From Candidatus Saccharimonadota bacterium (GTDB taxonomy: Bacteria > Patescibacteriota > Saccharimonadia > Saccharimonadales > AWTP1-31), in contig JAPLYT010000002.1 in NCBI GenBank assembly GCA_026395435.1, positions 1-46,224 on the forward strand: a DNA stretch of 46,224 bases, read 5' to 3'. The position numbers were made by a program, and so were the translations under genes. Shown here in pieces: positions 3,273-33,970 of this stretch (position 1 is the stretch's first letter; the number at the start of each line of letters is the position of its first letter). The notes under the pieces were generated by a model that was not told where the DNA came from, made no database searches, and saw only the letters and a list, made by a program, of their open reading frames with translations.

Positions 3273-4043
3273 ATGAGTAAACATAACAACTTTGAATATC
3301 AACAATTAAGAAAATGGAATGTTAGAGCTGGGCTTTTGCATTTAACATCATTGATTGCAGTGCTATTGCTTGCAAATAATTTCTCGCTGCCCATTACAGC
3401 AACCTATATGACTGGTCCTCCAGGGACTGATTCAACTGGTCCGATCGTTTTGTTTAGTGTTAAGGTAGCCTACACGATTGCAGTTTTTCTCGGTTTGTCG
3501 GCATTTTTCCACTTTTTTATATCCATGAGCACGGTTTTCCCCAGATATGTTAATGGGCTAAAAAACAATCGGAACATTTTTAGATGGGTTGAATATTCAT
3601 TGAGCTCGACAATTATGATATTTGTTATTTCACAACTAAACGGCACCAGCAACTATGCTGCTCTGTTGGGGATTTGTGGTGTCAATGTTTCGATGATTCT
3701 TTTTGGCTGGCTGCAAGAAAAGTACAATAAGCCAGGTGATAAGCAGTGGCTACCATTTATATTTGGTTGTATCGCTGGCATAATCCCCTGGATTATCTTC
3801 ACCATTCAGCTTATTTCGCCAAAAGGGCCTTCTACCGCTACGGCACCAGGATTTGTCTACGGGATAGTCATATCGTTGTTCCTACTTTTCAATTGTTTTG
3901 CGATCGTTCAATTTTTGCAATACCGGGCAAAAGGCAAATGGGCAAATTATCTTCGAGGCGAAAAAGCATATATTATCCTGAGCTTTGTGGCAAAATCTTT
4001 GCTTGCATGGCAAATATTCGCTGGCGCCCTTGCTGCTAAATAA
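3273..4043 (+). CDS. heR: Heliorhodopsin
   Basis: Seven hydrophobic segments; LRKWNxxAGLLH (TM1 His), SAFFH (TM2 His), RWVEYSLSS (counterion Glu), retinal-binding SFVAKSLLAW. Confidence 0.93.
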   Translation: MSKHNNFEYQQLRKWNVRAGLLHLTSLIAVLLLANNFSLPITATYMTGPPGTDSTGPIVLFSVKVAYTIAVFLGLSAFFHFFISMSTVFPRYVNGLKNNRNIFRWVEYSLSSTIMIFVISQLNGTSNYAALLGICGVNVSMILFGWLQEKYNKPGDKQWLPFIFGCIAGIIPWIIFTIQLISPKGPSTATAPGFVYGIVISLFLLFNCFAIVQFLQYRAKGKWANYLRGEKAYIILSFVAKSLLAWQIFAGALAAK

Positions 4044-12904: not shown

Positions 12905-13402
12905 ATGAATCCGCTTATCGTTATGGGCCTTATCGCAGGTGTGCCAGCAGTCTTAATTAGCTTGTTTCGCTCAAAGGCAGCCATGGTGTTCATGGCCTTG
13001 TGTGCTGGAAGCGTTTTGACGACATTTGCTGGAGCTACGGTCATTGAATTATTAAATGTCTTTTCGACGAACGATAGCGACTCAGCACTTGCAATCGTAA
13101 AGATCGGGCTGCTCGTAGCCCCGGCTTTTATAACGCTTCTGCTCGTAAGTCGTACCATGAATGGCCCTAAAGCCATGATGAACATATTCCCAGCAATTCT
13201 TACCGGCATAACCATTCTCTTCTTGGTCGTCCCACTTCTACCACCGGGGACGAAGTATAGTATTGTAGCTACGTCTGTCTGGAGTCAGCTTCTGCAGTAT
13301 CAAGCCGTATTAGTCGGCTCAGCCATTTTTATATGCCTATTGCAGCTGTGGGGAGGCGCCAGAGGCCCTCGTCACAAAAAGCGCGGCCGCCACAGCAAAT
13401 AA
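12905..13402 (+). CDS. Hypothetical membrane protein
   Basis: 165 aa, ~5 TM segments, basic tail; TGGTATTAT-N6-ATG upstream. Confidence 0.75.
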   Translation: MNPLIVMGLIAGVPAVLISLFRSKAAMVFMALCAGSVLTTFAGATVIELLNVFSTNDSDSALAIVKIGLLVAPAFITLLLVSRTMNGPKAMMNIFPAILTGITILFLVVPLLPPGTKYSIVATSVWSQLLQYQAVLVGSAIFICLLQLWGGARGPRHKKRGRHSK

Positions 13403-13408
13403 CCAAGC

Positions 13409-13807
13409 TTACTTTTCGAGAGCTTCAATGAGCGTATCGATATTGGAGAGCCGGTCGAGCTTCTTCATTTCGTCTACGCTAAAGAACTTCAATTCCTGGC
13501 ATTCTTCTGATGGAGTGAAATTGAGATCTTTGAGTTTTATTTCGTAGACAATGTTAGCTGCAAATTTACCGGGTAATCTTCGTTCATAGGTAAAAAAGTA
13601 GAGTGGAGCAGGGCTCATTTGGGTTACTTCCAAACCAGTCTCTTCCTTGATTTCACGATGCATACACTCTTCTGGAGTCTCACCATGGTCGATGCCGCCG
13701 CCCATCATCTCCCACTTGCCATTATCTTCACGGCAAAGCAGCACCCGACCATCGTCGTCAATAACGACGCCTTTGACACTTATTCGGTATACGCTTGGTT
13801 CGTCCAT
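13409..13807 (-). CDS. NUDIX hydrolase
   Basis: Nudix box GGIDHGETPEECMHREIKEETGL. Confidence 0.92.
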   Translation of the reverse strand: MDEPSVYRISVKGVVIDDDGRVLLCREDNGKWEMMGGGIDHGETPEECMHREIKEETGLEVTQMSPAPLYFFTYERRLPGKFAANIVYEIKLKDLNFTPSEECQELKFFSVDEMKKLDRLSNIDTLIEALEK

Positions 13808-29051: not shown

Positions 29052-29241
29052 AAAAGACCTCAGAAGAGGTGGGTGAAAGGAACTGCCTTTAGCACATCAG
29101 CTACTGTCCTCGGAATTAATTCCTGTGGGCAGTATTGATGAGCACACCTTCGACATACGCCAGCAAGCTGACGTGTCTCAGAGCTAAGTCCTTAATACCA
29201 CGGGCAAATAAAAAAGACCTCAGAAGAGGTCTGTTTTATTT
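29052..29241 (-). repeat. tRNA-Pro-tailored downstream element, displaced from its tRNA by the island
   Basis: Terminator 29206-29241; antisense-like 29187-29199; ACCTTCGAC (29146-29154 = 33787-33795); core CTCGGAATTAATTCCTGTG 29109-29127; GGGTGAAAGGA (29071-29081 = 33771-33781). Confidence 0.72.
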
Positions 29242-29438
29242 GGTCGAACCTCTCCGAACGTACTTGAACTGTTCTATTCTATCATCAAAGTTGGTGACCA
29301 ATATGAACGTGCTTGCGTAGAACTAGAGGAATGTTTGAGCTTTACGGTAGAAAACCCCTGTTATGTAACCTTATAACGTGGTATACTTTAAGTAACATTA
29401 GCTAACAATAAGCCAAACTAAGTGAGGGGAAATAACAG

Positions 29439-29657
29439 ATGGATGACGAGAACCACGCCGACACCGCAAATACACTAGATAACGTTGCTAGTACGCAACC
29501 TGTGGTGAGCGATGCACCTGCACCTGCCGTCAATCCATCAACCGCTACTGACAGTAGTGGAAACAATATAATCTTGAACGAAGGCGGTCACAACACTGCT
29601 GATATATCTTCTACACAAGCCTCCTCGAACCAAGGACCAGACGTAATACAAAAATGA
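29439..29657 (+). CDS. Small low-complexity hypothetical protein
   Basis: 72-aa ORF with GAGGGA RBS; ATGA overlap with the next gene. Confidence 0.5.
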   Translation: MDDENHADTANTLDNVASTQPVVSDAPAPAVNPSTATDSSGNNIILNEGGHNTADISSTQASSNQGPDVIQK

Positions 29658-30061
29658 GTACCGTAGACACCCAAGAACAGTTTATAGAGATGCGAGCGAA
29701 CAACGAAAGTTACGCCAGCATTGCTACCAAATTAGGTGTCAGCAAAACCACCCTTATCAAGTGGGCTAAAGATTACGAATACGAAATACATAACCAACGG
29801 TCACTCAATATGGATGCCTTGCAAGAGCAGTACAAGGTCGGTAAGCAACATCGTATACAAATGCTGGGCGAAAGGTTGCAAAAGCTACAAACAGAGGCAG
29901 AAAACCGTGATTTATCAGAAGTACCGACCTACAAGCTATTTGAACTTATTGACCGTACTGTACAGGCACTAGAGCGTGAGGAAACACCGTTTGTATACAC
30001 CGAGGTAGAAGACGGTATGCGGTTACAACCTCTCAATACAATAACTAAGTTAAGTGTCTAG
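29654..30061 (+). CDS. HTH-containing hypothetical protein
   Basis: SYASIATKLGVSKTTLIKW HTH followed by a helical region. Confidence 0.7.
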   Translation: MSTVDTQEQFIEMRANNESYASIATKLGVSKTTLIKWAKDYEYEIHNQRSLNMDALQEQYKVGKQHRIQMLGERLQKLQTEAENRDLSEVPTYKLFELIDRTVQALEREETPFVYTEVEDGMRLQPLNTITKLSV

Positions 30062-30095
30062 GATGGTCCAAAAGTTGACCAAAACTGTACCAATT

Positions 30096-30278
30096 ATGAA
30101 AACAGACGATTTACCAGACTACCTAACGTTAAAACAAGCCTGCGTGCTATTACAAGTCCACCCTAACACCCTACGCAACTGGGATAAAAAAGGCATTTTG
30201 AAGGCTAATCGCATCGGTGAACGTGGTGTTAGGCGATACAAGAAAACAGATTTAATAAATTATATGGAGGCAAAATGA
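30096..30278 (+). CDS. Excisionase-like / MerR-type HTH protein
   Basis: YLTLKQACVLLQVHPNTLRNWDKKGIL...RRY. Confidence 0.82.
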   Translation: MKTDDLPDYLTLKQACVLLQVHPNTLRNWDKKGILKANRIGERGVRRYKKTDLINYMEAK

Positions 30279-30940
30279 TTGTTATAACAGGTGCAAGTGA
30301 CGGACTAGGTTTACAGTTGGCAAAGCTTTATAAGGAAGCAGGTAAAACTGTGGTGAACGTGTCACGGCGTAAAAGTGAATATGCAGACCATAATATACTC
30401 TTTAGCTTACGTGAAGGACCAGAAATTGAAAAAGCAGCAAAAGCAATTCTTGCCATTGATGAGCCTATTGAGGCACTTGTAAATTGTGCAGGTGTTTTAT
30501 CTATACAGCCACTAGGCAAAATTACCGAGGATGAAATAAAGCGTGTTATGTCTACTAACGTAAAGTCGGCAATTCTGCTAGTTTCAAATCTTGCTGAAAG
30601 AATAAAAAAAGACGGAACTGACATTGTAAATGTGGCTTCAACAGTTGGACTTAAAGGGTACGTTGACCAAGCAGTTTACGGTGCTTCTAAATGGGCTATT
30701 AGAGGTTTTAGTGCGAACTTGCAAGCTGAACTAAAAGACACGCCTTGCAGGGTTATTAGTTTTTGTACAGGTGGCTTTAAGTCAAAGTTATTCGCTAAAG
30801 CAACTGGAGATGACAACACTACTAACGAAGGTGAATGGATGCGACCAGAGGATGTAGCTTTATTTATGAAACAGATACTAGACTTACCGAAAAATATGGA
30901 AGTATCAGAAGTTATTATCAATAGAAAACAAGCGAAATAG
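30275..30940 (+). CDS. SDR family oxidoreductase
   Basis: TGASDGLG, VNCAG, NVAS, YGASK. Confidence 0.92.
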   Translation: MIVITGASDGLGLQLAKLYKEAGKTVVNVSRRKSEYADHNILFSLREGPEIEKAAKAILAIDEPIEALVNCAGVLSIQPLGKITEDEIKRVMSTNVKSAILLVSNLAERIKKDGTDIVNVASTVGLKGYVDQAVYGASKWAIRGFSANLQAELKDTPCRVISFCTGGFKSKLFAKATGDDNTTNEGEWMRPEDVALFMKQILDLPKNMEVSEVIINRKQAK

Positions 30941-30943
30941 GTT

Positions 30944-32062
30944 ATGGGCGAACAAATGATAAACCTTGATATGGAAAAAATAAACGCTGGTATAGCCGAT
31001 AGGTCCGATGTTTTTTATTGGCAAACAGACCGTGCCGTGGAACCAGAACAGGCAGGTCATATATGGGCTGATAGACACCGTTATTTCACTGATACAGAGC
31101 TTGTAGAGCGTGTAAACGGTGTTATTGGTGATGATAAACTTGGTTCGATATAGCCACTAGACCTAGACGCTCAAACCAATTTAGGGAACGTCAATTCTGT
31201 ACGTGTTGGTACGCTCGTTTCTGGCAAAGAAGTTATCATCCGAAGTCACCCTAAAGGTGTAAAAAATGGTTATTTCCACGCAGAAGCCGAAGCATCACAC
31301 CGTGCCAAAGCATCAGGTTTACCAAGTTACGAAACATTAGCTGTTCACGACTATGAACGTGGTGACGATTTTGCCTTTCAGGTAATTGAAAAACTGTCAG
31401 GTACAGCTATTAAAAAATGGCTGGAAAATCACCCAGATGACGAAGCAAAGCTTTTACCACAGGTTGGTAAGATGATGGCTCGATTACATAATGTTAAAGT
31501 TGATGGATTTGGACCATTTGATAATCAAAAAGCTAAAAATGGTGAGCTTGTTGGGGTACACACAACGCTAGGTAAAGCCGTAAGGGCTGGACTACTGTTT
31601 AATCTTGATGTACTTGTTGAGCAAGGTATTTTGACAGCTACACAGCAAGAAGCCGTAGCAGGGTTGTTCGCCGATAGTAACCCCCTACTAACAATAAGTC
31701 AGGCTGTGCTTGTACATAATGATTTTGCAGACTGGAACTTATTAACGGACGGCGAGGATGTTACTGGCGTATTAGATTGGGACGAGTGTGTAGCAAGTGA
31801 CCCTGTTGCAGACATAGCTTGTTGGAGTACATTCTTTGAACCAGAACGCTTAAAGCCATTTCTTGATGGCTATTGGCAGGTTGCCGATAAACCTGATGAT
31901 TTTGAAGATAAGTTTGAGTTACTACGACTAAGATATGTTGTTTCAAAAATGACACTTCGGACAAGACGCTATACTTGGGACCCAAGTGACTTTATGAAGG
32001 AAAAAATCGTAACTGGTAAAACACACTTGGCTCAATCTATGAGCTACTTTGATATTAAGTAG
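30944..32062 (+). pseudogene. Aminoglycoside/choline phosphotransferase-family kinase interrupted by one in-frame TAG (31151-31153)
   Basis: ORFs 30944-31153 and 31472-32062 share a frame and the intervening sequence is open; HNDFADWN and LDWD kinase motifs. Confidence 0.82.
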
Positions 32063-32070
32063 GCACGGCT

Positions 32071-33924
32071 ATGGACGAAGAAAACATCAAAAAAGGTCCA
32101 CTTGACGAACTGCTATCAATTTTTCAGGCAAACAAAGATTTACAAGAAGAAGTAATCAAGCCAGAGAACCTGCGGTACATACTGTATGCTCGCAAATCTA
32201 CTGTTGATGAGGGTCGGCAAGAAAAGTCCATCCCTGACCAAATAAATGACTGTTTTGACCGTGTTATAAAGCCCCTGCATATCACCTTGCCTGATAGCGA
32301 CATTATCGAAGAAAAAGGGTCAGCAAAAGAACCTGATATACGACCCCAATTTCGTGAGATGTTGAACAGCATTGTTGCTGGTCGCTATGACGGTATCATC
32401 TGTTGGCATCCTGACCGACTTGCAAGGAATATGAAGGAAGCTGGCGAGATTATCGACCTACTGGACAAGGGTATTATCAAGGACCTGCGATTTGCTACTT
32501 CTGCCTTCGAAAACAGCCCCACAGGTAAGATGTTGCTGGGTATTAGCTTTGTTCTATCAAAACAATACTCCGAACACCTTAGCGAAAGCGTCACTAGAGG
32601 TAATAAACGCCGTACTGAAAATGGATGGTGTTTGAAGAAGCAACAGCACGGCTACTACATATCTGACGGCAAGCTGTTCCCTGATGGCGAAAACTACAAT
32701 ATCATCCGTCACGCCTTCGATATGAGGTTACAGGGCAAGACACAAGCCCAAGTCGAGCGGTATTTGAACAAACGTAGTGACTATAAGGTATTTCGCAAAA
32801 TCAACATCAAAGACAAGCACGGTAAGGTGCTAAAGCGTACCTCGGAGCGAGTAGCCTATAAATGGGATAAAGATGCTGTGTCGGAAATGCTCAAAGACAC
32901 TACCTATGTTGGTATTTTGCAGTATGGTCGTGCCTACTGTGTACTGGGTGATTTTTATGACTTTACTCCTATGGCCACCGAAGAAGAGTATTTGACCTTA
33001 TACCCTCGTCAGGACCTTGAAAAGCTAAGATTTAAGGCATCGCAAGCTCGCAAGCAAAGCATATCGGCAAAACTGCTGAATGGTCGCATTGTGTGCGGTG
33101 ACTGTGGGCAAACGCTATCTGCTGGCATCACTACCAAGAAAAAAGGTACAGAGCAACGTTTTCGCTACCGTTGCGAAACCAAGAACTGCCCTATGTATGA
33201 CAAAGGTCCAAGAGCCAAGGTTATTACTGACTTTTGTATAGATTTTCTTGATAAATACCGTTTTACTACCCAGACTAACTACGCTAATTACAAAATCGAA
33301 ATGAGTAGCTACCAAACAAGCCAACGTAAGGAGCTTACAAAGCTCATAGCATCGCTTGCCAAGCAATTATCTGATAAGGAGCGTGAGTACAACAATTCTA
33401 TGCGTATCGCTGCCGACCCTAATCATAGGCTGGCACAACGGTATGCTGACCACGTTGAGTTGTTGGATAAAGAATTAAAGTCACTGCGTAAGGATTATAA
33501 AGAAGCTAAGGACACCAAAGACAAGCTAAATACGGCTATTTTGTCATATGAAAGGTATCTCGAACTTTTCGATAATACAGCTACTTTACTTCGTTCAGAG
33601 CCGAGTTTGGAGTTGCTAGACAATGTACTGTCAAAGTTCTTCTCGAACCTTGTTTTGAAGGGTGCATTGATGCCACCAAAAAACGCTATTACCAGATGGG
33701 AAGTAACCGACTTCAAACTAAGAGAACCCTATGCAGGGTTCTTCAAAGATAGTAATTTCGAACTTGGTCGGGGTGAAAGGACTCAAACCTTCGACCTCTC
33801 GGTCCCAAACCGAGCGCGCTATCAACTGCGCCACACCCCGTCGTCAGAATCGACGGTAGCCTTTCACAAAATTGATGATTCAATTTTGTTCCACGCTCTA
33901 GTCGCTTCTTCCTCTCAGTTCTAA
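32071..33924 (+). CDS. Large serine recombinase (integrase)
   Basis: LYARKST catalytic motif, DRLARN, recombinase domain, Zn ribbon CGDC...C...C, coiled coil; the 3' end runs antisense through tRNA-Pro. Confidence 0.93.
   Translation: MDEENIKKGPLDELLSIFQANKDLQEEVIKPENLRYILYARKSTVDEGRQEKSIPDQINDCFDRVIKPLHITLPDSDIIEEKGSAKEPDIRPQFREMLNSIVAGRYDGIICWHPDRLARNMKEAGEIIDLLDKGIIKDLRFATSAFENSPTGKMLLGISFVLSKQYSEHLSESVTRGNKRRTENGWCLKKQQHGYYISDGKLFPDGENYNIIRHAFDMRLQGKTQAQVERYLNKRSDYKVFRKINIKDKHGKVLKRTSERVAYKWDKDAVSEMLKDTTYVGILQYGRAYCVLGDFYDFTPMATEEEYLTLYPRQDLEKLRFKASQARKQSISAKLLNGRIVCGDCGQTLSAGITTKKKGTEQRFRYRCETKNCPMYDKGPRAKVITDFCIDFLDKYRFTTQTNYANYKIEMSSYQTSQRKELTKLIASLAKQLSDKEREYNNSMRIAADPNHRLAQRYADHVELLDKELKSLRKDYKEAKDTKDKLNTAILSYERYLELFDNTATLLRSEPSLELLDNVLSKFFSNLVLKGALMPPKNAITRWEVTDFKLREPYAGFFKDSNFELGRGERTQTFDLSVPNRARYQLRHTPSSESTVAFHKIDDSILFHALVASSSQF
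33765..33840 (-). tRNA. tRNA-Pro(TGG)
   Basis: Reverse complement CGGGGTGTGGCGCAGTTGATAGCGCGCTCGGTTTGGGACCGAGAGGTCGAAGGTTTGAGTCCTTTCACCCCGACCA. Confidence 0.92.
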
Positions 33925-33970
33925 AGTGCAGGAGAGTCGAATGAATCGACTCCTTGGCACTTTAGAACTG
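33916..33970. repeat. Long hairpin
   Basis: CAGTTCTAAAGTGC...GAGTCGA-atgaa-TCGACTC...GCACTTTAGAACTG. Confidence 0.6.

Follow-up and report, generated by a model that had tools for sequence, protein, structure and literature searches.

The contig JAPLYT010000002.1 of a Candidatus Saccharimonadota bacterium (46,224 nucleotides, hereafter the window; contig C10 of a 938-kb genome) carries what sequence comparison shows to be a 4.5-kb integrative element whose large serine recombinase, or integrase, has its closest relatives in Saccharimonadales genomes. The open reading frame (ORF) of the integrase occupies positions 32071-33924 of the forward strand (617 aa) and reads antisense through a tRNA-Pro(TGG) gene on the reverse strand (33765-33840), as a first-pass annotation of this DNA had described. 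Copies of the heptamer TTGGTCG lie on the forward strand at 29240-29246, in the left attachment (att) site attL, and at 33764-33770, in the right site attR. The right copy overlaps the CCA end of the tRNA and coincides with integrase codons 565-567 (L-G-R), again as first noted. Domain and alignment data indicate that G566-R567 closes the part of the protein that belongs to the integrase itself and that the 50 residues after it are antisense of the tRNA and its upstream DNA. When the ends are joined in silico (33770 to 29247), the frame stays open through a different, 42-aa tail to a stop codon at 29374-29376, yielding a 609-aa product; a script reproduced this part of the annotation exactly.

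The integrase contains the resolvase catalytic (PF00239), recombinase (PF07508) and zinc-ribbon (PF13408) domains in this order, each above its cut-off, and scores 50 bits against the CcrB model, whose cut-off is 900. The clipped form encoded in the integrated state retains the catalytic, recombinase, zinc-ribbon and coiled-coil regions, and a family profile of this form aligns with residues 18-518 of the 545 in the SPbeta integrase (E 8e-17). The tail is therefore an add-on behind a complete enzyme, at the place where fusions to recombination directionality factors (RDFs) act.

Because the heptamer alone is not above chance in the window, where it occurs 17 times (10 on the forward strand, 7 on the reverse), the ends of the element were fixed by comparison with relatives. 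Locus L001, which comes from another family and has different cargo and flanks, carries an integrase 96% identical to that of the window, and its homology to the window begins exactly at 29239 (93% over 857 nt). Locus L058, with an integrase 95% identical, is inserted at tRNA-Pro GGG and has the same left end. In the reconstructed empty site, an intact tRNA-Pro is followed directly by a terminator-like hairpin (29205-29242, reverse strand, z -6.1), which makes up the B arm of attL and resembles hairpins in relatives. The flank recurs in a genome of the same family (G012, locus L007), in which the DNA directly 3′ of tRNA-Pro(TGG) matches window positions 29146-29246 at 72% over 101 nt. Finally, a motif of the tRNA arm recurs in the far-end arm at a 5-bp shift (identity 0.51, compared to at most 0.32 at 14 other shifts, in 37 loci), a result that concerns this one pair of arms, the other arms having no clear motif. 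From the tRNA call and this arm comparison, the attB copy of the motif is the T-loop of the tRNA, 5 bp nearer the core than the copy in attP.

These comparisons uphold the end positions given in the first-pass annotation and shorten its core: the family core is the 6-nt TGGTCG, and the additional T is matched in only 10 of 37 loci. Symmetry peaks that might identify the crossover dinucleotide are low and split between the first two and last two core bases, and the protein outcome is the same whichever dinucleotide is central. The last two core bases vary with the target, and both ends always agree. Several close relatives (L028, L049, L039-L042) have moved to tRNA-Ala, Leu or Gly with these two bases changed at both ends, and they provide a natural series for studying target specificity.

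A chance heptamer next to a chance open frame would account for the 17 copies, and for four contig sets in which no circle junction was seen. The exact shared ends, the empty-site flank, the 5-bp motif shift, the conserved and selected tails and the natural tail-bearing proteins described below all contradict this explanation; it is refuted by the comparative data and we give it practically no credence.

A conserved tail stored at the far end of the element

Relatives of the integrase occur in 96 of 401 genomes of the order (E 1e-30; the tally includes two genomes marked unpublished). We assembled 47 loci, namely 40 regions from the best matches, four metagenome loci, the window, L001 and a second recombinase of the same genome. 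Of these, 39 were testable; in the others the upstream DNA is too short (L027, L047, L059), the integrase runs off the contig (L040, L061) or no tRNA lies at the integrase end (L036, L060, L043). The predicted elements span 2.8-10.7 kb (median 5.8 kb) and sit chiefly at tRNA-Pro genes, with tRNA-Gly, Ala and Leu also used, and their layout persists between clades that are about 30% identical and at four tRNA targets. The second serine recombinase of the genome (contig C2, 17898-19463) is built alike: it ends at a tRNA-like sequence without an ARAGORN call, and its 42-aa tail is stored 6050 bp upstream (13399-13524).

In the integrated state the tail, 42 codons and a stop at 29248-29376 on the forward strand, has no start codon of its own: 12 open codons precede it, and none is an in-frame start. 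We searched downstream of 181 upstream copies of the 6-nt core across the 39 testable loci. In 36 loci the integrase frame encodes a 35- to 53-aa peptide similar to that of another locus, compared to 7 and 3 loci for the other two frames. Adding the tail of L034 (score 44, threshold 45) and leaving out L023 and L032, which yielded no tail, gives the 37-locus set used throughout. A cluster shared by L034 and L055 was not counted, as it proved to be the host rny gene.

Substitution patterns point to constraint on the protein. For eight disjoint pairs of tails (L053/L056 excluded from the pooled pairs), the ratio of non-synonymous to synonymous change (pN/pS) over the whole tail is 0.39 in the integrase frame and 1.04 and 1.65 in the other frames, with mismatches distributed 94/64/147 over the three codon positions of 340 codons. 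The first nine tail codons double as an attP arm and hold its DNA-binding-domain-2 motif ACTTGAAC (near 29262-29269), so the L-E-L motif of the peptide is partly a DNA constraint. From codon 10 onward, pN/pS is 0.41 compared to 1.08 and 1.56. Close pairs give 0.05-0.17, comparable to the integrase body, and the window tail differs from that of L001 by four synonymous and one non-synonymous change, and from that of L058 by five and two. Purifying selection thus acts on the stored tail at the level of the protein, also past the codons of the att arm. The proposal that attP lies inside the recombinase ORF with a real alternative tail is borne out by the 36 loci, which also answer the question, raised in the same annotation, of whether homologous islands conserve the tail. 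We hold the anatomy and the selected tail, taken jointly, with high confidence.

Tail similarity tracks integrase similarity (Mantel rho 0.52, 0 of 2000 permutations; kin are not independent). Searches of Pfam, PDB and the ESM Atlas returned nothing credible for the tail, only weak matches to protein A helices, and beyond these no resemblance to RDFs or to proteins of known structure was detectable. A tail profile recovered only the window's own copy from 301 genomes of the phylum, which is no evidence of absence given how short and diverse the profile is, and a homolog search with the tail region of protein P0116 returned three proteins and no new tail-bearing one.

Although the tails split into several sequence families, their length stays tight (41-43 aa in 18 of 37), and the last residue is L, Y, F or V in 35 of 37. 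Hydrophobic C-termini can serve as protease signals. One possibility is that the tail, or its loss, alters half-life, solubility or translation termination rather than directionality, either as a degradation signal that limits circle-encoded enzyme or as a stabilizing cap. The terminal residues and the divergence of sequence at near-constant length fit this idea. However, a degron needs few residues while selection spans the whole tail, and the ends of the integrated forms vary freely from 1 to 50 aa. We consider an effect on dose or stability alone quite improbable.

Two states of the integrase

In the integrated state, the integrase acquires tRNA-antisense residues whose number is 1 in 12 loci, 4 in 11, 16 in 10, 26-27 in three and 50 in one, this last being the window. 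Near-identical integrases end differently at three tRNA-Pro isoacceptors. The tRNA-encoded end is incidental and not selected. With an end so arbitrary, integration amounts to truncation, and no second functional tail is installed. The suggestion in the first-pass annotation that the integrated form is a distinct functional isoform is therefore not supported. Among the 120 homologs listed, 111 lose similarity at the same G-R position and continue, by their pattern, as tRNA antisense; seven of the remaining nine have other ends and two are fragments. Screens that clone annotated forms may consequently be testing the wrong protein.

The last integrase codons may also serve the tRNA. A hairpin on the reverse strand at 33723-33742, within the EPYAGF codons and some 20 nt beyond the 3′ end of the tRNA, is a candidate replacement terminator. 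Its signal in the window alone is modest (z -1.8). Across the family, a hairpin on the tRNA strand falls within the last 19 codons before the core, in a region that is the most stable of 23 gene windows in 20 of 37 loci. In 25 of 37 its fold is more stable than that of 95% of synonymous recodings, and the sequences differ among clades. We infer that this hairpin probably replaces the tRNA terminator displaced 4.5 kb by the insertion. Four other loci (L010, L012, L044, L045), at which only the last integrase codons or the hairpin are left beside a tRNA or a tail, appear from their sequences to be remnants of deleted elements that have retained the hairpin.

Large serine integrases are known to need a separate RDF to control direction, and cognate RDFs are hard to find. 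In the family described here, sequence comparison places attP in the last integrase codons, so the full-length enzyme, with its 35- to 53-aa tail, is encoded only where attP is intact, that is, on a free circle or at a tandem junction. After integration, the tail is stranded at the far end without a start codon, and the chromosomal gene ends in arbitrary residues read from the tRNA. We propose that such elements might control direction through the state of their own DNA. The tail-bearing form would be the integration-efficient enzyme; an incoming circle can make no other, so this form must integrate. The clipped chromosomal form, with all canonical domains retained, would be attenuated or biased toward excision. 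The tail would thus act as a control module dependent on DNA state, the recombination event itself would set the state of the enzyme, and most elements would need no separate directionality factor. The hairpin in the last codons would take over from the displaced tRNA terminator.

We regard control of activity or direction by the tail as evenly balanced between true and false. In its favor stand the conserved and selected tails, a clipped form that still aligns with most of the SPbeta integrase, the 128 of 130 listed integrase matches that have no internal stop, the family-wide hairpin signal, and the scarcity of excisionase-like genes (5 of 37 elements). A more specific version, which we advance tentatively and with some doubt, is that the tail is a C-terminal helical module acting as an inverse RDF in cis: it would lock the integrative mode, integration would produce an RDF-free excisionase, and a single segment of DNA would encode protein, form the att site and terminate the tRNA.

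Several points weigh against state-dependent control. Intact integrase ORFs are also expected from recent arrival, and other, unrecognized directionality factors may sit among the element ORFs. Helical amphipathy ranks in the top 5% of shuffles for only 18 of 37 tails, and the attP DNA motif accounts for part of the conserved L-E-L. The six members of the window's own 90% protein cluster are tRNA-ended forms only. The junction proposed in the first-pass annotation (33770 joined to 29247) did not materialize: no joint of the element ends is present in the contigs of runs X1, X2, X6 and X7, a result that is uninformative on excision given a depth of about 2-15 and the loss of rare forms from contigs. 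One contig of run X7 links 29061 to 33764 through 18 nt of other sequence. It most likely represents an empty tRNA-Pro site in a different organism, and we left it aside.

Most of the natural proteins that bear a tail resemble chimeras made at tandem junctions. At L030 and L052, an integrase is joined to a tail at such a junction, yielding full-length chimeric enzymes. One 90% protein cluster combines tRNA-ended members with P0029, P0125 and P0128, which bear three unrelated tails; tails are therefore interchangeable at tandem junctions and circles are not proven, a further point against our proposal. Protein P0124, on a 5.1-kb contig that may be a circle, has the tail type expected for its clade. 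A search of IMG/VR yielded 19 loci, of which two are close (45%) and both are integrated at tRNA-Gly, and no circular form. The best matches in phage and plasmid collections are just 23-27% identical.

The full-length chimeras also fit a tail that is needed for any activity at all. The integrase would then be suicidal, its integrated gene dead, and excision would depend on full-length enzyme supplied in trans by an incoming element or a tandem junction. Strong selection on the tail agrees with this explanation, SSV-type integrases behave in this way (PMC8371274), and the same idea was the subject of speculation for the Dehalococcoides integrase DsiB (PMC3146451). However, the clipped protein retains all domain regions, while the break in SSV integrases separates the catalytic domain from the rest. 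In addition, most examined elements are single, and 128 of the 130 integrase matches listed are unbroken by internal stops. A suicidal integrase is possible, and on balance we think it unlikely.

Other element genes and neighboring features

Besides the integrase, no gene is common to most of the 37 elements. The other genes of the window's element that are described here lie on the forward strand. A 72-aa low-complexity ORF (29439-29657), without a Pfam or PHROG match, is conserved in L001 and L058. It is followed by a 135-aa helix-turn-helix (HTH) protein (29654-30061; homologs in 6 of 37 elements) and by a 60-aa excisionase-like HTH_17/MerR protein (30096-30278). The cargo comprises a short-chain dehydrogenase (SDR; 30275-30940), absent from L001 and L058, and an APH/kinase-family phosphotransferase (30944-32062) that falls far below every curated resistance-gene cut-off. 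The latter gene is broken by an in-frame TAG at 31151-31153, which is the same in a near-identical contig of run X1. In the clade of L031, L035 and L038, the elements have a tyrosine integrase and an MgsA-like gene in addition to the serine integrase.

The HTH protein at 30096 had been put forward as a candidate directionality factor. Its score against the excisionase model TIGR01764 equals the cut-off, but homologs are present in only 5 of 37 elements, which makes it a weak candidate. Its presence is compatible with the tail being an accessory without regulation, in which an in-gene attP is simply compact packing, the tail gives modest aid to folding or DNA binding, both forms act much alike and another factor sets direction. 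Tails that swap between clades at tandem junctions, and a pN/pS near 0.4 between distant pairs, which is moderate, are also compatible with this idea. Against it stand the close pairs, whose tails are as constrained as the integrase body, and the layout kept among clades so distant and at four tRNA targets. We judge a purely accessory tail very unlikely.

The element had also been called minimal, with no replication or transfer genes. Indeed, no replication or conjugation genes were recognized among the element ORFs. The description overlooks the SDR and APH cargo and the recurrence of genes resembling terminase small subunits. The 135-aa HTH protein matches these subunits weakly (E 1e-4 to 3e-3). 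Representatives of related clusters match at E 2e-11 and exceed the Pfam Terminase_2 cut-off, and three ORF clusters with such representatives together reach 17 of 37 elements. These genes hint at transfer of the phage-satellite type, in which a helper phage would package the element. PICI (phage-inducible chromosomal island)-like satellites are defined by a primase/replication module and an AlpA regulator, neither of which is found among the element ORFs. With relatives in nearly a quarter of the genomes of the order, this family is probably one of the main ways in which these small genomes acquire genes, and it is missed by island finders keyed to tyrosine integrases and longer tRNA duplications.

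Several structured sequences lie near the element ends. At 29052-29082, 160 bp upstream of the terminator, half of the tRNA-Pro terminator is duplicated over 19 nt, and the next 11 nt are the same as the tRNA end; this may be the scar of an earlier attachment or a small insert. Just left of attL, loci L019, L025, L049 and L051 have related inserts of about 190 bp that open with 21 nt copied from the tRNA 3′ end and close with a terminator and core; these are perhaps a small non-autonomous element or a structured RNA at the same site. Upstream of its element, L001 has three more junctions of a hairpin plus TTTGGTCG (at 3290, 4716 and 5378), with near-identical left arms, that flank small gene blocks and resemble a cassette array or stacked scars. 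Upstream of the window's tRNA-Pro, positions 33841-33970 contain two long predicted hairpins (z -7.7). Over its first 75 nt this segment resembles, at 87%, the DNA that precedes tRNA-Met on contig C2, and the segment has matches in genomes G003 and G026; it appears to be a repeated structured element beside tRNA genes.

Comparison with known systems

Our literature search, which took in few subscription journals, found no published description of this tRNA-targeting family or its tail. A 2014 paper states that no serine recombinase was then known to use tRNA genes as targets (PMC4383910). The natural pair of tail-on and tail-off enzymes offers a cheap, ready test of another solution to direction control, and could lead to integrases for genome editing that act at tRNA 3′ ends and can be switched.

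The SPbeta integrase (SprA, with SprB) and the Listeria A118/LI integrase (PDB 9dxh, 4kis) share the domain order of the enzyme described here and a motif 5 bp nearer the core in attB than in attP, an offset given as a rule for large serine integrases (PMC11722253). In these systems, unlike ours, the att site is outside the integrase gene and direction is set by a separate RDF, one helix of which is reported to decide direction for SPbeta (PMC11722253).

A close counterpart in layout is DsiB, a serine integrase specific to ssrA that is found in islands of Dehalococcoides (McMurdie et al. 2011; PMC3146451). Its gene is described as always overlapping the att site, with a 3′ end antisense to the target RNA gene, and its islands occur in tandem; its authors speculated that the enzyme is fully functional only on a circle or downstream of a neighboring island (PMC3146451). 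In contrast to our family, which uses tRNA CCA ends and one recombinase, DsiB targets tmRNA and belongs to a six-gene module with a second recombinase, DsiA (PMC3146451). None of the genes dsiA-recF-parB-mom was recognized among the element ORFs, and the target here is tRNA-Pro rather than tmRNA. A conserved stored tail is not described in the cited portions of that report (PMC3146451); the tail reported here is under selection.

Tyrosine recombinases provide two further precedents, as the integrase genes of Mx8 and SSV extend across attP (PMC4383910). In Mx8 IntP, attP lies inside the int gene and integration alters the C-terminus (Tojo et al. 1996, cited in PMC4383910). This enzyme differs from ours in being a phage tyrosine recombinase. 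Its altered form is reportedly less active, a finding ascribed to Magrini et al. in 1999. SSV-type integrase genes are broken by their own integration into tRNA genes, and chimeric genes arise (PMC8371274, PMC7253208); integrase, site and control of directionality are described as united in one all-in-one module, and a review calls self-disrupting recombinases exclusive to archaea (PMC8371274). As in the suicidal type, the att site described here lies inside the integrase ORF and the gene is changed on integration. Unlike the archaeal SSV-type tyrosine enzymes, which are split into int(N) and a catalytic int(C), ours is a serine recombinase of a bacterial host that keeps all its domains together and loses about 7% of its length. 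The anatomy is thus a variation on a known principle, with precedents in the Mx8 and SSV integrases and in the speculation about DsiB.

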